DNA of 54,284 bases from Candidatus Woesearchaeota archaeon. Its GTDB lineage: Archaea; Nanobdellota; Nanobdellia; Pacearchaeales; GW2011-AR1. Location of the stretch: positions 1 to 54,284 of the forward strand of contig CAZLHJ010000001.1 of the NCBI GenBank assembly GCA_964559675.1, written 5' to 3'. The notes beneath the pieces were generated by a model that had not been told where the DNA came from, made no database searches, and worked only from the letters and a program-made list of their open reading frames with translations. The translations under genes were made by a program, and so were the position numbers. Below are positions 199-9,988 of this stretch, piece by piece. How positions within the stretch are numbered: the stretch's first letter is position 1; the number at the start of each line of letters is the position of its first letter.

Positions 199-768
199 AT
201 GAGAAATAATATTTACATAATTGAACATCTCGAGCCCGAGCTTTGGCCATGGTGTATAATTGAATATGAGAATATGGCTAAGCTAGTTGGGAAGAAAAGA
301 ATGTGGTTTACAAATATTCAAAAGAAAGATGTATCTAAATTAGAAAAATTCGGAAAAGTTTTCACAGAATCAGTAAAAACAATGGATTTACAAGATACTT
401 GTGTTCTTGATCCAGAATCAAAAATTCTTTTAACTCCAAAAGATTCCCAAGAATTCCAATACTTCATTTTTGGAGGTATTTTAGGAGATCATCCTCCAAA
501 GAAGAGAACTGAATTAGAATTAACAAAATTCATAAAAGATACTAAAACTCGAAACATAGGAAAAGAGCAATTTTCAACAGACTCTGCAGTCTATGTCACA
601 GACCAAATTCTCTCGGGAAAAAACTTCTCCGAACTTAAATTCCAAGATGTTGTAGATATAAAATTAAATGACGTTGAAACAGTCACTCTTCCATTCAGAT
701 ATCCTTTGATAAATGGTAAGCCGAATATCACCAAGAAGCTCATCAAATATCTCAAGACTGCTTATTAG
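199..768 (+). CDS. SPOUT-class SAM-dependent methyltransferase, Sfm1-like (RNA_Me_trans family)
   Basis: Motifs YIIEHLEPEL..W..IEY, VLDPES, FIFGGILGDHPP..RT, QFSTDSAV, V.LPFRY typical of the Sfm1/COG2428 family. Confidence 0.85.
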   Translation: MRNNIYIIEHLEPELWPWCIIEYENMAKLVGKKRMWFTNIQKKDVSKLEKFGKVFTESVKTMDLQDTCVLDPESKILLTPKDSQEFQYFIFGGILGDHPPKKRTELELTKFIKDTKTRNIGKEQFSTDSAVYVTDQILSGKNFSELKFQDVVDIKLNDVETVTLPFRYPLINGKPNITKKLIKYLKTAY

Positions 769-2771: not shown

Positions 2772-3449
2772 ATGTTAATTCTAGGTATTGACGATGCGGG
2801 GAGAGGTCCAATAATAGGTCCAATGGTTTTAGCAGGAGTTCTAATCAGCTATGAATCCGAAGCAGAACTAAAAGCCCTAGGGGTGAAAGATTCAAAAGCA
2901 GTCCTTCAAAATTCAAGGGTAAAAATTGCAAAATCAATAAAATCAATCGCTCTTGACAGCAAAGTAGTTCTCTCCACACCAGAAGAAATAGATTCTTCTA
3001 TTTTATCAGGAACAAATCTCAACACATTAGAAGCAATAAAAACTGCAGAGATAATAAACTATATAACAAAAAATCACAAATCAAGAATAAAAGTAGTGGT
3101 GGATTGCCCTTCTGTGAATATTAAAGCATGGACTGCAACCCTCCTCAAATATGTAAAAGAACCAGATAATTTAGAAGTTACTTGTGAACATAAGGCAGAT
3201 GTAAATCATGTAGCAGTTTCAGCTGCATCAATTTTAGCTAAAACCACAAGAGAAGAACAAGTAGATAAAATAAAAGAAAAATATGGAAACATGGGAAGTG
3301 GTTACCCTGCAGATCCTTTCACAAAAGAATTTTTAATAAAGCGTGGAAAAGAATTAGAAAACTCAGGAATTTTCAGAAAATCCTGGCAAACCTGGAAAAC
3401 TCTCTTCGGAGATCCAAGTGAAAAGGATAAGCAAGCTAAGTTGTTTTAA
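2772..3449 (+). CDS. rnhB: ribonuclease HII
   Basis: GIDDAGRGPIIGPMV, GVKDSK, VVVDC, HKADV..VAVSAASILAK, GSGYPADP. Confidence 0.97.
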   Translation: MLILGIDDAGRGPIIGPMVLAGVLISYESEAELKALGVKDSKAVLQNSRVKIAKSIKSIALDSKVVLSTPEEIDSSILSGTNLNTLEAIKTAEIINYITKNHKSRIKVVVDCPSVNIKAWTATLLKYVKEPDNLEVTCEHKADVNHVAVSAASILAKTTREEQVDKIKEKYGNMGSGYPADPFTKEFLIKRGKELENSGIFRKSWQTWKTLFGDPSEKDKQAKLF

Positions 3450-4081: not shown

Positions 4082-4705
4082 ATGACTTCCTTAGAAAGAC
4101 TGGGAATAAAATGCGAATATCGCACAGAAGGAATGAGAGAACTGAATTACACAATTCCATTAAATCCTGAAAAATTTAATAGTCCTAAGGAGGAGAGAGA
4201 TTATTTTCAGAAGATGATCCGAGGGATCTCAAGGGATGTTTCTAAGAAAAAAGGTCTCGAGAATTTAACTCTTACATTCGACTCATCCCATAGAGATGGA
4301 CTAATCTCAACAACACAAGAATTAATAGATGAAGCAGAAAAACAAAAATTAATTAGAAAAGGAGAGGGAGACTTTCCCATTCTACCAAGAATCTTAATTA
4401 TTGGAGGAGCAACTGCAGGTACAGTAGCAGGTCTTGTTTACGGTTATGATCAAATGTCTGAGTGGGGCACAAATGCAGCAAATTCTATGAATAATTATTC
4501 GCATCTATTAGCTCCAATAGCAGGAAGTTTACAAGCAGGCATCTCTATTTTTGGAAGTGCAGCAACGACTCTCGTCGGATGTTTAGCGGGACTTTTTGGT
4601 GGAGTAATCGCATCAAGACCATATGTATTTGCAAAAACTCCTCTCGCTAGCGAGGTTGAAAATTTCAAGAGGATTAAAGAGGAATTATCTTCAAGTAAAA
4701 TTTAA
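4082..4705 (+). CDS. hypothetical membrane protein with glycine-zipper-like helices
   Basis: Hydrophobic Gly/Ala-rich segments (GGATAGTVAGLVYG; GCLAGLFGGVIA). Confidence 0.65.
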   Translation: MTSLERLGIKCEYRTEGMRELNYTIPLNPEKFNSPKEERDYFQKMIRGISRDVSKKKGLENLTLTFDSSHRDGLISTTQELIDEAEKQKLIRKGEGDFPILPRILIIGGATAGTVAGLVYGYDQMSEWGTNAANSMNNYSHLLAPIAGSLQAGISIFGSAATTLVGCLAGLFGGVIASRPYVFAKTPLASEVENFKRIKEELSSSKI

Positions 4706-4747: not shown

Positions 4748-7615
4748 CTACTCCATTCTCAAACTTAAAATCTTTGAAATTCCTTCATGCATACTCACAC
4801 CATACAAAATATTTGAATTTGTAATTAAAGCATCATTATGTGTAACTACAATATATTGCCCGGCTTTCATATATTGATTTAATAAACCCGCAAGCCTCTC
4901 TGAATTTCTCTTATCTAGTGCTGCATCAATCTCATCAAAGATATAGAAGTGATATGGCTTATGCTCTTGTATAGCGAATAATAATGAGAGAGCAACCATT
5001 GTTTGTTCTCCACCAGACAACGAAGTAACATCAAAGTATTTACCTTTGGCCATTTTAACAACGATATTTACTCCGCCTTTGAACAAATCTTCTTTATTCT
5101 CAATTTCCAAATACGCCTCACCTTTAGTTGAAATTTTACTAAAGTTCTGAGAAAAGATTTCATTAACAGCATGGAAACTCTTCATAAATTCTCTCTTCTT
5201 TTTCTTATCAATCTCTTCAATAATGCTCATAATATCTCCTTTTTCTTTTTCAAGAACCTGAACTTTCTCAAACACTACATCATACTCTTTCTTAACTTCT
5301 TGATACACTTCAAGAGCCCTCATATTAATATTTCCAATTTGTTGTAATAAAAATTGAGTTTTTCTTAATTTATCTTCTAACATTGCTACAGTTCCTTGAA
5401 TAATTTCAACTCCATGGAATTCTGAAATTTCAAATTCAAGAGATTCCTTTTCAGCAACAAATTTCGCAAGCCCGATTTTCAAATAATTCGCCTGATCATC
5501 AATTTGCCTCATTTCATTATTGAGGTCATTTAATTCTAAACTAGCTTCTTGAGATTGAACTTGTGTCTTATCTCTCTCTTCAAACATCTTTTTAAATTTC
5601 TCATTAAGTTTTCTCTCTTGCTCTTCTTTTTCTTTCAAAAGTGCAAACTTTTCCTTAAGCTCTCTCGTATGTTCCATTAATATTTTATTTAACTCTTCAA
5701 GACCTTGCATATTAATTTTAATAGCATTCCTAGATGCGTCTAAATCTCTTTCTCTATAAATTAAGACCGTATCCACATTTTCTTCAGTTCTGGAAGATAT
5801 TTCCTCAATCTCCATAATTTTCCTTTCATATTCTTCTTCTAACTTACTAGAATCAAGAGACTTTGATTCAAGAGTATCTCTCTTCTTTTCAAGCTCTTGT
5901 AATTCTTTTCTAATATTGTCTTGTTCTTCAGTTAATTTTCTCAAATTATCTTTTTTTTCTTTAAGATTTCTTTGATTAATTAATTCAATTTCAGATTTAG
6001 ATAATTTTTCTTCATTCTCTCTCAACTCCCTCATTAACTCTTCTCTCTTAGATTTAATATTCTCCAGCTCTTGCTTGGCCCTTTGAGATTTATCTCTGTG
6101 CTCTTTTATTCTATTATCTGAATCGCTATATACATGAGATATATGGTCTTCAGTAATCTTACTTTGACATAGCGGACAAGTATCTATCTTAGAAACATCT
6201 TCTTTTATTTTCTCAGCTCTTCTTATTTCTATATCTGCAACTCCAATTATTTTTTCATTTTGAATAGAATCATCATGTAATTTATTCAATTCCTCTCTTC
6301 TGCTCTTTATTCTCTCTTTTATTTTTTCTATATGTGATTGAGTATCTTCAACATTCTTATAGATGAATTTACTAGAGATATCATCTATATTTCTTAACAA
6401 ATGGTCTCCTTCAGAAGTATTTCTAGCTAATTGCCTTTCTTTATCTTTTATTCTTTCTCTGGTTGAATTAAGCTCGGTCTTTAAACTTAGAATTTTTCTT
6501 CTCTCCCCTTCAAGTTGAGACAACTCTTCTTTCTTTTTCCTAACTTCTTCTGCTTTCTTAGCCATCAAAGGACTCTTCTTCCTAAGCTCTTGGATTTCCT
6601 TCTCAATTTCAGGAATACTTGCTTTAAGCTCTTTAATTCTCCTCTCAGACTCGTCTTTTCTATGTTCTTGACTTTCTTTTCTTACTCTTAATCCTTCTAA
6701 ACTTGCCCGTAAATTAGAGATATCATTTCTCAAGGATTCTTGTTCTAATCCCGTAGATTGTTGAATATGCTTATTTATAGTATTAATCTTATCAGTTAAA
6801 ATTTCAAGCTCTCCTTGCAATTTAACATATTTCTCCTTTAATTTCTCTTTTTGTTTATTCCTCTCTTCAATACTCTTTTCAACATTTTCAATTTCTTTTT
6901 TCTTCTCATTTAATTTCTTTGTAATAATACTTGCCTTTGTTTTTTTCACAGATTCTTCTAATTCTTTAAATTTCTCAGCCTGCTCTTTCTCTTTTTCTAA
7001 ATTTTTCAAATAACTAGACCTTTCTCTCAAAATAGTAGAAATTTCCTTCAGCTTAGAATCTGTTTTCTCAAGTTCTTTCATAGCTCTTTCTTTTCTTGTT
7101 TCATAAATCGAGATTCCTGCTACTTCCTCAACTATTTTTCTTCTTTCTTCTCCATGCATTCTTACAATGCTTTGAATCTGTCCTTGCAAAACTAAATTAA
7201 ATCCATGAGGGTCTATACCTGCCTGAGCTAATAATTCAATTACTTCTGCTCGTGTTTTAACTTCTCCATTTATCTTATATATGCTCTGCCCGTTTCTTCT
7301 TACAATTCTTGTTAAAACAACTTCATCCGCATCTAAACCAAAATCTCTAGAAGTATTATCAAAATATAGCTCAACAACCGCCTCTCTAGCAGGCTTCATT
7401 AATTTACTTCCCATAAAAATCAAATTAGACGCTTTAGCCGTCCTCATACTCTTCATACTGAGCCTTCCAAGTGCAAAACATAACGCGTCAGATATGTTGC
7501 TCTTCCCAGATCCGTTCGGGCCTATAACTGTGTTAATATTTTTATCAAAAATAACTTCAGTTTTCTTGGCGAAACTCTTGAATCCATGAATCACCATCTT
7601 TTTGATATACGTCAT
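4748..7615 (-). CDS. smc: SMC-family ATPase: Smc-type head, central CxxC zinc hook, no recognisable hinge
   Basis: Walker A GPNGSGKSN, Q-loop VLQGQI, signature LSGGEQ, Walker B FDEIDAALD, H-loop VVTHN, long coiled coils, CPLC at aa 480-483. Confidence 0.9.
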   Translation of the reverse strand: MTYIKKMVIHGFKSFAKKTEVIFDKNINTVIGPNGSGKSNISDALCFALGRLSMKSMRTAKASNLIFMGSKLMKPAREAVVELYFDNTSRDFGLDADEVVLTRIVRRNGQSIYKINGEVKTRAEVIELLAQAGIDPHGFNLVLQGQIQSIVRMHGEERRKIVEEVAGISIYETRKERAMKELEKTDSKLKEISTILRERSSYLKNLEKEKEQAEKFKELEESVKKTKASIITKKLNEKKKEIENVEKSIEERNKQKEKLKEKYVKLQGELEILTDKINTINKHIQQSTGLEQESLRNDISNLRASLEGLRVRKESQEHRKDESERRIKELKASIPEIEKEIQELRKKSPLMAKKAEEVRKKKEELSQLEGERRKILSLKTELNSTRERIKDKERQLARNTSEGDHLLRNIDDISSKFIYKNVEDTQSHIEKIKERIKSRREELNKLHDDSIQNEKIIGVADIEIRRAEKIKEDVSKIDTCPLCQSKITEDHISHVYSDSDNRIKEHRDKSQRAKQELENIKSKREELMRELRENEEKLSKSEIELINQRNLKEKKDNLRKLTEEQDNIRKELQELEKKRDTLESKSLDSSKLEEEYERKIMEIEEISSRTEENVDTVLIYRERDLDASRNAIKINMQGLEELNKILMEHTRELKEKFALLKEKEEQERKLNEKFKKMFEERDKTQVQSQEASLELNDLNNEMRQIDDQANYLKIGLAKFVAEKESLEFEISEFHGVEIIQGTVAMLEDKLRKTQFLLQQIGNINMRALEVYQEVKKEYDVVFEKVQVLEKEKGDIMSIIEEIDKKKKREFMKSFHAVNEIFSQNFSKISTKGEAYLEIENKEDLFKGGVNIVVKMAKGKYFDVTSLSGGEQTMVALSLLFAIQEHKPYHFYIFDEIDAALDKRNSERLAGLLNQYMKAGQYIVVTHNDALITNSNILYGVSMHEGISKILSLRME

Positions 7616-7769: not shown

Positions 7770-8207
7770 TCATCGAACTAGTCTCAATTCAGGAGAAGAA
7801 ACTAATCTATATTCTCCAGTTTCATCATCTAATTCATAAACTTCAGAACGACTAACCATACTAGAGAATGCCTTATGGCTTACCTCTCTAGTTTTTTCTT
7901 GATAATCCATTATCCTAGTTACTAAATCAATTCCTAAAAGTCCAATGACTTCTTTTAAGGACATCGATAATTCATATCTTCTATGTCTTTTTGAAATATT
8001 CTTTGGAAGAGCTTTCAAAATTTCCAATTCCCTTTTATCTAATGTAGTCCAAAAACCCTCAAATCCATTTTCCGAAAAATTTCCTACTGCTCCTGAATGG
8101 TCTTGATAAAATCTCCAGAATTGATTCGCAACAGTTTTGTTATATCCAAAAGAAGTTAGTCTTTTAACTACTGATTCTCTTAACCTTGCATACGTTTCTC
8201 TAGACAT
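7770..8207 (-). CDS. hypothetical protein
   Basis: 145-aa ORF; no family recognised. Confidence 0.7.
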   Translation of the reverse strand: MSRETYARLRESVVKRLTSFGYNKTVANQFWRFYQDHSGAVGNFSENGFEGFWTTLDKRELEILKALPKNISKRHRRYELSMSLKEVIGLLGIDLVTRIMDYQEKTREVSHKAFSSMVSRSEVYELDDETGEYRLVSSPELRLVR

Positions 8208-8278: not shown

Positions 8279-9010
8279 TTATTTAAAGCAAGTTTCCTTA
8301 ATACCAAGAACCTCTGCTAGAACCTCTGGATTAAGGACATAATCCATGCCTTGTTCAACTGAAAGAGAAGTCAAGCCATGATAAATCCTAATAAATCTTG
8401 CAGAATCTATCGCATCACCCAGGGGCACAACATTACCGATGTTTGTTCTAGTTTGGCTAATAGAATCTCCAAACCAGTAGGCAAATGCCTCATCATTTTC
8501 TCTTCCTTTAGAAAAGGAAGTTAAGAGTCTAAGATTTCTAAGTGGGTTATAGATTTGCCGGCTAGAATAACTAGCAGGGTTCATTTTTGGATAAAGAAAT
8601 TCATCCAATGCAATATGGCCATATTCATGGGCAATAACATTTGCTAAGAGGTCTTCTGGGGTCACACTTAATCCTTCTTGAATATTATGTGTTCGAAAAT
8701 AATCAAATTGAGGACTTCTTAATAATCTTGCAACCATTCGGTTGATAAGCGGATGATGCACTCCCTTTGCATCTTTCAAAAGACAACCTAATCCTCCTAT
8801 TTTCTTTTTTTCAAAACATTGTCTTTTTAATTTAGGAAAATAATCTTGAATTTTTGCCAAAACTACTTGATGAATTTCTTCTGCTTTTCCTTCTAAGGGA
8901 TTTGCTCCATTCATTCTCTTTTGCATAGGATCTTCTCTTTCTAAATCTAAAATGATTTTAGTCAGAGGGTCTTCCCCATAATCATATGGGATATAATTCA
9001 TCTTTGCCAT
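8279..9010 (-). CDS. hypothetical protein with HExxH zincin-like motif
   Basis: IAHEYGH followed by a downstream DEAFA glutamate helix. Confidence 0.55.
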   Translation of the reverse strand: MAKMNYIPYDYGEDPLTKIILDLEREDPMQKRMNGANPLEGKAEEIHQVVLAKIQDYFPKLKRQCFEKKKIGGLGCLLKDAKGVHHPLINRMVARLLRSPQFDYFRTHNIQEGLSVTPEDLLANVIAHEYGHIALDEFLYPKMNPASYSSRQIYNPLRNLRLLTSFSKGRENDEAFAYWFGDSISQTRTNIGNVVPLGDAIDSARFIRIYHGLTSLSVEQGMDYVLNPEVLAEVLGIKETCFK

Positions 9011-9356: not shown

Positions 9357-9731
9357 TTAGTGTTTGTATCCAAAAACATTATCATAGTCTTTGTGATTGA
9401 AAATATCCATTACGAAATTTATGACTTCTAATTTATTACCTGTAATTGTGTAGATTAATCTCCAGCGATTAGCTAATTCAATTCTCCAAACATTTTCTGC
9501 ATCATATTTTTTAGCATACTTATCAGGTAATTGTCTTCTTGGGACTTGATCGCCCGCAAAGGGATTTTTCTTAAGCAAGTCAATTACTCTTTCAATCGAT
9601 CTTAATAGAGTTTGATGAAAAGAACCCTCAACACCCCTCATCTTTTCTTCACCAACAATTTTATTCAACTCTTTAAAAACTTCATCAGCTTCTTCGGAGA
9701 AAACAACTTTTATCTCCTTGTTTTCAAACAT
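9357..9731 (-). CDS. RelE/ParE-superfamily putative toxin
   Basis: N-terminal 'VVFSEEADEVFKEL', L.KNPFAG, and C-terminal WRIELANRWRLIYTI...HKDY, typical of the RelE fold. Confidence 0.7.
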   Translation of the reverse strand: MFENKEIKVVFSEEADEVFKELNKIVGEEKMRGVEGSFHQTLLRSIERVIDLLKKNPFAGDQVPRRQLPDKYAKKYDAENVWRIELANRWRLIYTITGNKLEVINFVMDIFNHKDYDNVFGYKH

Positions 9732-9988
9732 TATACTTCTCTCCCTTTCTCAATTGCTTTTCTTAGTTTTGAACTAGGATTGTAAATCCAGAGTATTCCT
9801 TTATGGCTATCGATTATTAATCCCCTATTCTCCATGTAATTAAGAATTAGATTAAGTGTTTGGTGCATTATTTTATTCGGCAATCTTCTTTTTAATTCTT
9901 CGCGGGTTAGCATAGTGTCGGCATCCTTTAGAGCTTTCTCTACCATTAACATTGTCTTCAAACTTGGATAGTGTATTATTTGTTCCAT
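9731..9988 (-). CDS. small winged-helix protein, putative antitoxin/regulator
   Basis: LTREELKRRL...QTLNLILNYMENRGLI wHTH pattern; its stop overlaps the RelE-like start by 1 nt. Confidence 0.65.
   Translation of the reverse strand: MEQIIHYPSLKTMLMVEKALKDADTMLTREELKRRLPNKIMHQTLNLILNYMENRGLIIDSHKGILWIYNPSSKLRKAIEKGREV

Follow-up and report, generated by a model that had tools for sequence, protein, structure and literature searches.

The hinge is regarded as one of the defining features of SMC proteins, with proposed functions as a DNA-binding site and as an entry gate. An engineered Bacillus subtilis Smc, Smc(Zh), in which the hinge was replaced by the Rad50 zinc hook of Pyrococcus furiosus, supported normal growth with the same arm-length constraints (Buermann et al. 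2017, PMC5344682), and hook and hinge have been reported to be interchangeable modules for dimerisation (PMC6969161). Zinc hooks are also carried by the ASRP family of archaeal SMC-related proteins (ClsN/coalescin, Sph1 and Sph2; NF045487), of which ClsN organises chromosome compartments (Yoshinaga et al. 2022, PMC9389158), and by many LmuB proteins (PMC10586767). "Hinge-less" SMC variants without a CXXC motif have been described in marine Actinobacteria (PMC12153180, 2025). Here we analysed a stretch of 54,284 nucleotides (the window) from the metagenome-assembled genome (MAG) of a tiny DPANN archaeon (Nanoarchaeota), in which one gene encodes a 955-residue Smc with a CPxC motif at its midpoint, referred to below as hook-Smc. 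Our analyses indicated that this gene is very probably the single bona fide Smc of an Smc-ScpAB condensin, and a mosaic in which a Rad50-like zinc-hook apex replaces the hinge. The full-text literature that was searched, which does not cover all journals, contained no description of a natural zinc-hook Smc, and within it the swap of hook for hinge is otherwise reported only as a laboratory construct.

Comparison of hook-Smc with the Smc of canonical Smc-ScpAB complexes (TIGR02169/TIGR02168; Pyrococcus Smc, PDB 5XEI and 4I99) showed that the two had in common the head motifs, approximately 180 residues of colinear arm adjoining the head on either side, one copy of the gene per genome, and the presence of ScpA and ScpB. 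Hook-Smc differed in lacking the SMC hinge (PF06470), in being about 210 residues shorter, in having a CPxC hairpin apex and in scoring below the equivalog cut-off. Smc(Zh) likewise combines the heads and arms of Smc with a hook of the Rad50 type; however, it is a bacterial laboratory construct, whereas hook-Smc is natural, archaeal, fixed across an order (251 species genomes sampled) and has arms of its own of about 310 residues. As in the Rad50/SbcC zinc hook (PF04423; 1L8D, 5GOX), the CPxC motif lies at the tip of an antiparallel coiled coil, and Rad50 hooks gave profile similarity over about 106 residues and the best structural matches, but the heads were not of the Rad50 type and no mre11 was adjacent. 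The ASRPs are likewise archaeal SMC-superfamily proteins with a zinc-hook motif in mid-protein; their heads are distinct, they are shorter (the model has 593 positions), and they have been described as SMC-related proteins and not as Smc-ScpAB subunits. Based on the known hook of ClsN, a hook-bearing chromosome organiser is not unprecedented, although the heads of those proteins are non-Smc. The marine Actinobacteria variants also naturally lack a hinge, and resemble the 780-860 residue mini-Smc of sister lineages described below; they differ from hook-Smc, which has a conserved hook, in being bacterial and without CXXC.

Analyses of the heads indicated that they were of the Smc type. An earlier reading of the DNA letters by a model (the original prediction) had claimed Smc-specific and not Rad50 head signatures, and all the motifs that it quoted were present in the product (GFKSF, SNISDALCFALG, MRTAKASNLIF, IGNINMRALEVY, LSGGEQTMVALSLLFAI and FDEIDAALD). 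Its open reading frame (ORF), 4748..7615 with 955 residues and a stop, was also correct, the minus strand being a detail that it had left unstated. Pfam matched SMC_N (2e-44) across residues 3-947, and the best solved relatives in a PDB search were the Smc heads of Pyrococcus and Thermococcus (5xei, 1.6e-99), with Rad50 heads at about 1e-12. Walker A, the signature LSGGE, Walker B and the H-loop of an Smc ATPase head were all identified, and the C-terminal head motifs (LSGGEQ and Walker B) were invariant in an 80-sequence alignment. At full length the NCBIfam scores were 516 bits for SMC_prok_A (TIGR02169), 513 for SMC_prok_B (TIGR02168), 147 for ASRP and 109 for Rad50. The two SMC scores did not reach their equivalog cut-offs (729 and 567 bits, respectively), as would be expected if about 200 model residues, those of the hinge, were missing. 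The ASRP score was also under its cut-off (NF045487, 300 bits) and came mostly from the coiled coil, as the two heads gave only 20.6 and 32.5 bits. When the heads were searched separately, Rad50 models scored 30-54 bits against 170-198 bits for SMC.

The similarity to Smc extended into the arms. Curated NCBIfam models showed that both heads and both arm pieces matched SMC colinearly, and the full-length profile-profile score was 1296 against hinge-Smc and 282 against Rad50. Window-by-window alignment with hhalign matched aa 1-350 and 620-955 colinearly to hinge Smc (93-100%), with aa 170-260 placed on hinge-Smc positions 170-256 (prob 98.7) and aa 260-350 on 263-346 (prob 93.5), neither having a Rad50 match, and with aa 620-700 placed on 821-891 (prob 95.9) and aa 700-790 on 900-989 (prob 98.8). 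Smc-homologous antiparallel arm was assigned in this way to aa 170-350 and 620-790; the apex-proximal thirds (aa 350-430 and 535-620) matched neither Smc nor Rad50 and were unassignable. In a maximum-likelihood tree of the concatenated head halves of hook, mini and hinge Smc and of Rad50, the three Smc forms were found in one clade, split from Rad50 at 100/99. With Rad50 as the root, the deepest branches among the Smc were not resolved; hinge Smc was a more informative root, with the Smc of the window's order forming a single clade (100/99). The head fell with Smc when set against both Rad50 and ClsN/ASRP.

The middle of the protein was different. No SMC hinge (PF06470) was identified by Pfam in the 955-residue product or anywhere in the 790-kb genome, and the CPLC motif (aa 480-483, nt 6167-6178 of the minus strand) was located at the exact midpoint of the protein with coiled coil on both sides. 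Only three cysteines are present in the whole of hook-Smc, and two of these belong to CPLC. AlphaFold2 modelling of the single chain from the 80-sequence alignment (mean predicted local distance difference test score, pLDDT, 74.7, and 88-94 around the apex) produced continuous helices at residues 170-474 and 489-733, separated by a 14-residue loop with two beta bridges. The model had no globular domain at aa 450-600, where a hinge fold might have been predicted, and showed instead a plain helical hairpin. The 95-residue apex modelled alone was also a helical hairpin (pLDDT 95.6), and the top three matches to it in a Foldseek search of the PDB were Rad50 zinc hooks (1l8d chains A and B, and 5gox), with 7zqy and 6zff lower. 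These findings agreed with the claims of the original prediction that a hinge of roughly 150 residues is lacking and that CPLC sits near the midpoint between two coiled coils.

Profile searches indicated that the apex resembles the hook of Rad50. The best Pfam family for the isolated 91-residue hook fragment was Rad50_zn_hook (PF04423; E 0.0025), and this was the top family in 39 of 40 family members (best 1.7e-6). A 144-residue hook-region profile was aligned by hhalign to the full-length Rad50 profile of the phylum at 98.5% (E 1.4e-15), with the Rad50 hook at the exact centre of the 106 aligned columns, whereas the control alignment to the full-length hinge-Smc profile reached 10%. In the window-by-window alignment, aa 430-535 were placed on Rad50 positions 300-410 (prob 98.8, score 111.5), with a hinge-Smc prob of 3.4. 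The Smc hook and the Rad50 hook share V-x-K-[IL]-D-x-C-P-x-C...E-x-H. NCBIfam searches with the apex identified ASRP (26.4 bits, model positions 253-357) and Rad50_Sulf (20.4 bits), and no SMC model. When a 95-residue hook-region profile was searched against 301 genomes of the phylum, strong matches were obtained solely in the 950-990 residue Smc of the window's own family; the more than 120 weaker matches (1e-12 to 1e-4) were all to ORFs of 476-856 residues, the genome's own Rad50 included, and no match fell on any of the 278 hinge-type Smc ORFs. The same profile found 103 matches among 1.84 billion representative proteins, comprising hook-Smc (and fragments) and Rad50-sized proteins in which the match lay at mid-length. 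Against the PDB, phmmer with the isolated hook fragment returned RING fingers and keratin alone (E above 0.02), and the hook profile ranked human RAD50 first (E 0.15). The family's Smc hook profile was also observed to score Rad50 of other orders higher (46-54 bits) than Rad50 of its own order (22-33 bits).

Whole-genome searches of the window's order detected an SMC hinge in none of 251 genomes and the Smc in 248 of them. In the sample of the phylum, 278 of 301 genomes had an SMC hinge. The genomes without one were all 14 of the window's family (its own genome included), one other member of the order, and eight outside the order, of which two had Smc fragments at contig ends and six had no Smc-head match, except for weak Rad50 matches in two. 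Based on these searches and the head tree, the predicted hinge replacement maps to one order of Nanoarchaeota, whose Smc are one clade.

Conservation of the hook in homologues was far beyond chance. With the central region (aa 300-700) as query, 333 proteins were retrieved, annotated as "chromosome segregation SMC family protein" and derived from Pacearchaeota or Nanoarchaeota MAGs. In the best 120 of these, at 43-50% central-region identity, CP[LV]C was invariant (120/120) and usually at exactly position 480, and the motif around it, V-x-K-I-D-x-C-P-L-C-Q-S-K-I-T-x-x-H-x-x-H-V, was nearly invariant. A scan of GTDB species genomes gave more than 578 related loci, of which the best 80 were taken for motif reading; CPxC was present in all 79 readable Smc genes, shifted off mid-length in four by an intein, and every hook-type Smc of the order contained it. 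An intein with a LAGLIDADG endonuclease (PF14890, PF14528) interrupts the P-loop of Walker A (GPNGSGK|C...HN|SN) in homologues of 1480-1575 residues (P0013, P0025, P0059, P0071, P0090 and others), and was also observed in hinge Smc of about 1700 residues in the phylum; the window gene is without it. In one genome of family f4 (G332; contigs C10, C13 and C20) a 1000-residue Smc-like ORF (31% identity) was accompanied by a second copy split over two contigs, which could be due to paralogy or to contamination.

The window's genome (60 contigs) encodes one Smc-head protein in total. As the original prediction had noted, neither mre11 nor scpA or scpB was located next to smc; the neighbours were unrelated, and all of these genes were found elsewhere in the genome. 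ScpA was identified on contig C20 (4017-4646) and in 29 of 31 relatives, and ScpB on contig C39 (3107-3544) and in 31 of 31. A compact mre11-rad50 operon, outside the window on contig C2 (9681-12892), encodes an Mre11-type phosphoesterase (best NCBIfam match Mre11_Pyroc, 1e-25) followed by a 685-residue Rad50 (NF003034, 2e-40). The mre11 gene of the genome thus adjoins this separate Rad50 and not hook-Smc. This Rad50 has its own hook, KIDLCPTCLQDVPERH, which resembles that of the Smc, and as a query it detected Rad50 in 39 of 41 relatives, covering every family of the order. The presence of ScpA, ScpB and a separate mre11-rad50 pair indicates that hook-Smc is the condensin Smc of its lineage and not a Rad50, and together with the Smc heads it supports the chromosome-organising role that had been proposed from the sequence.

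Not all hinge-less Smc of the order have a hook. Other genomes of the order (loci L049-L052 and L159-L171) encode intact mini-Smc of 780-860 residues, with Smc heads and neither a hinge nor any CxxC. These occur in families f5, f6 and f7 and in several f4 genera, and the genomes retain ScpA, ScpB and Rad50. One f4 mini-Smc was close to the f4 hook-Smc of the same genus label. The two have lineage-specific head features in common, such as FDEIDPALD, and differ in that a stretch of about 170 residues, covering the hook and its flanks, is deleted from the centre of the mini form. The arm region of a mini-Smc matched nothing but itself in a word-index search. In the head tree the hook and mini forms were interleaved, with well-supported branches that force at least four changes, and in the hinge-rooted tree the f5 mini-Smc branched first (97/94). 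Either repeated hook loss or exchange of central regions could lie behind the interleaving, and either the hook or the mini form may have come first. We tentatively speculate that the whole order runs a hinge-less Smc-ScpAB, in which a Rad50-derived hook was swapped in by recombination of two SMC-superfamily genes and was later lost several times, giving rise to mini-Smc. If this speculation is correct, and mini-Smc is functional, no dedicated apex dimerisation domain would be needed for a working prokaryotic condensin.

In the mosaic Smc that we favor, the ATPase head, and each arm over the two thirds nearest to it, would be those of an ordinary archaeal Smc. The hinge of about 190 residues, and probably also the hinge-proximal coiled coil, would have been replaced by a Rad50-like apex of about 105 residues, consisting of coiled coil, CPxC and coiled coil. 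Each of two protomers would contribute Cys480 and Cys483 to one tetrahedral Zn2+, in the manner of Rad50, and the resulting Zn(Cys)4 hook would close the far end of the ring, taking the role of the hinge as the constitutive dimerisation site. ScpA would bridge the heads and ScpB bind ScpA, so that the head end is closed, and ATP-driven DNA loading and translocation would proceed via the heads and arms with the hinge dispensed with. Dimerisation by a hook in place of a hinge is plausible based on the normal growth and unchanged arm-length constraints of engineered Smc(Zh). The donor of the hook was probably Rad50 and not another hook family.

Several observations weigh against this interpretation. 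The Rad50_zn_hook match of the protein's own hook fragment, at 18 bits, was below the gathering threshold of 24.3 bits, and the Foldseek E-values were weak (0.02-0.07), as expected for a simple helical hairpin. Hidden Markov models (HMMs) of the N-flank or C-flank only scored no better than reversed-sequence decoys; without the core motif to anchor it the Rad50 signal is therefore lost, and the points at which Smc gives way to Rad50 cannot be fixed. A further match of the apex, to the ASRP model (26 bits), means that the hook could have come from a hook family other than Rad50. The existence of related mini-Smc without CxxC means that apex dimerisation may not be essential in the clade. Finally, the genome is a MAG that is about 85% complete.

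An alternative that we consider unlikely is that the CPxC apex is not a dimerisation hook, but binds metal within one chain (Cys480, Cys483, His491 and His494) or merely caps the hairpin, with the dimer held by arm contacts, head engagement and ScpA. The histidines at +11 and +14 were invariant or nearly so in the 120 close homologues, the hook had a weak Pfam match to the C2H2-type zf-Di19, and the retention of ScpA and ScpB alongside mini-Smc suggests that an apex link may be dispensable. However, just 22 of the 75 species genes from GTDB had His+14, and position +11 is Tyr in families f2 and f4, which leaves the two cysteines as the sole universal ligands, so that a zinc site within one chain cannot be completed. 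His+11 was also found in the Rad50 hook of the same lineage, and at the profile level the module is homologous to the hooks of Rad50, and these form dimers through Zn(Cys)4. An intramolecular Cys2His2 site as the principal explanation was similarly judged unlikely, with His+14 absent from other families of the order.

Convergence, in which the hook would have arisen within an Smc arm once the hinge was lost and would not derive from Rad50 or any other hook protein, we consider very unlikely. In its favor are the shortness of the CPxC motif, the decoy-level performance of the flank-only HMMs and the early branching of the f5 mini-Smc, which would allow the hinge to have been lost first and the hook gained later. 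However, the alignment to Rad50 over 106 columns and the motif shared with it argue against convergence, as does the score of the whole hook region (46-54 bits), which was about twice that of the core motif (15-24 bits), and the library-wide search, which yielded only Rad50-sized proteins besides hook-Smc. It is highly improbable that hook-Smc functions in repair or defence, as an SMC-like ATPase of the Rad50, ClsN/ASRP or Lamassu kind, and not as a condensin Smc: its hook does resemble the hooks of those families, scpA/B are not adjacent and its score is under the SMC equivalog cut-off (516 against 729 bits), but the heads are Smc-type by a wide margin, the shortfall in score is what a missing hinge would produce, ScpA and ScpB would otherwise be partnerless in a genome with this sole Smc-head protein and a separate Mre11-Rad50 pair, and the distribution over 248 of 251 order genomes is like that of a core gene.

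The mosaic Smc is of interest as a hinge-free Smc fixed in a whole order, apparently by the grafting of a Rad50 apex onto Smc arms, and would clearly exemplify the exchange of a module between two SMC-superfamily branches. With some relatives seeming to have lost the apex domain entirely, the order offers natural material for the study of hinge function. The original prediction had viewed the protein as a natural test of whether a hinge is needed; the hinge-free Smc was confirmed, but the test was partly anticipated by Smc(Zh) (PMC5344682) and ClsN/ASRP (PMC9389158). Hook-Smc may provide an independent check of the conclusion from Smc(Zh) that the essential mechanics lie in the heads and arms and not in the dimerisation fold. 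Hinge alignments served as the seed of the SMC survey in PMC5344682, and surveys seeded in this way would miss hook-Smc, which therefore falls in a blind spot of annotation and survey.

Table 1. Features of the hook-Smc gene, with positions in the window.
Feature	Position	Strand	Evidence
smc gene, hinge-less hook-bearing Smc, 955 aa + stop	4748..7615	-	SMC_N 2e-44; TIGR02169 516 bits; TIGR02168 513 bits; PDB 5xei 1.6e-99
N-terminal half of Smc ATPase head, aa 1-170	7106..7615	-	TIGR02169 197.6 bits vs Rad50 54, ASRP 20.6; hhalign score hinge-Smc 475 vs Rad50 79
Walker A GPNGSGKS, aa 32-39	7499-7522	-	Inside N-terminal head half
Head-proximal N-terminal arm, aa 171-350, colinear with canonical Smc arms	6566..7105	-	hhalign; TIGR02169 73.8 bits (colinear)
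N-arm segment of unassignable origin, aa 351-429	6329..6565	-	hhalign prob 0.8 (Smc), 4.4 (Rad50)
Apex module, Rad50-like zinc hook with ~50 aa coiled coil each side, aa 430-535	6011..6328	-	hhalign, NCBIfam, Pfam, AlphaFold2/Foldseek
CPLC, Cys480 and Cys483, putative zinc ligands at hairpin tip	6167..6178	-	Conservation in homologues
C-arm segment of unassignable origin, aa 536-619	5759..6010	-	hhalign prob 3.5 (Smc), 5.5 (Rad50)
Head-proximal C-terminal arm, aa 620-789, colinear with canonical Smc arms	5249..5758	-	hhalign; TIGR02168 37.9 bits (colinear)
C-terminal half of Smc head, aa 790-955	4751..5248	-	TIGR02168 169 bits vs Rad50 32, ASRP 32.5
Signature LSGGEQ	5003-5020	-	Inside C-terminal head half
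Walker B FYIFDEIDAALD	4913-4948	-	Inside C-terminal head half

The ORFs that flank smc (4082-4705, 7770-8207 and 8279-9010) had no Pfam match and showed no sign of being Smc partners. Elsewhere in the window, an SFM1-like protein arginine methyltransferase (199-768, plus strand; 1.4e-52) and RNase HII (2772-3449, plus strand; 4e-40) were identified. Two small genes on the minus strand (9357-9988), whose ends overlap by one base, encode an 85-residue winged-helix-like protein and a 124-residue protein with weak matches to YoeB/ParE toxins (E 1.6e-4), and are possibly a toxin-antitoxin pair.

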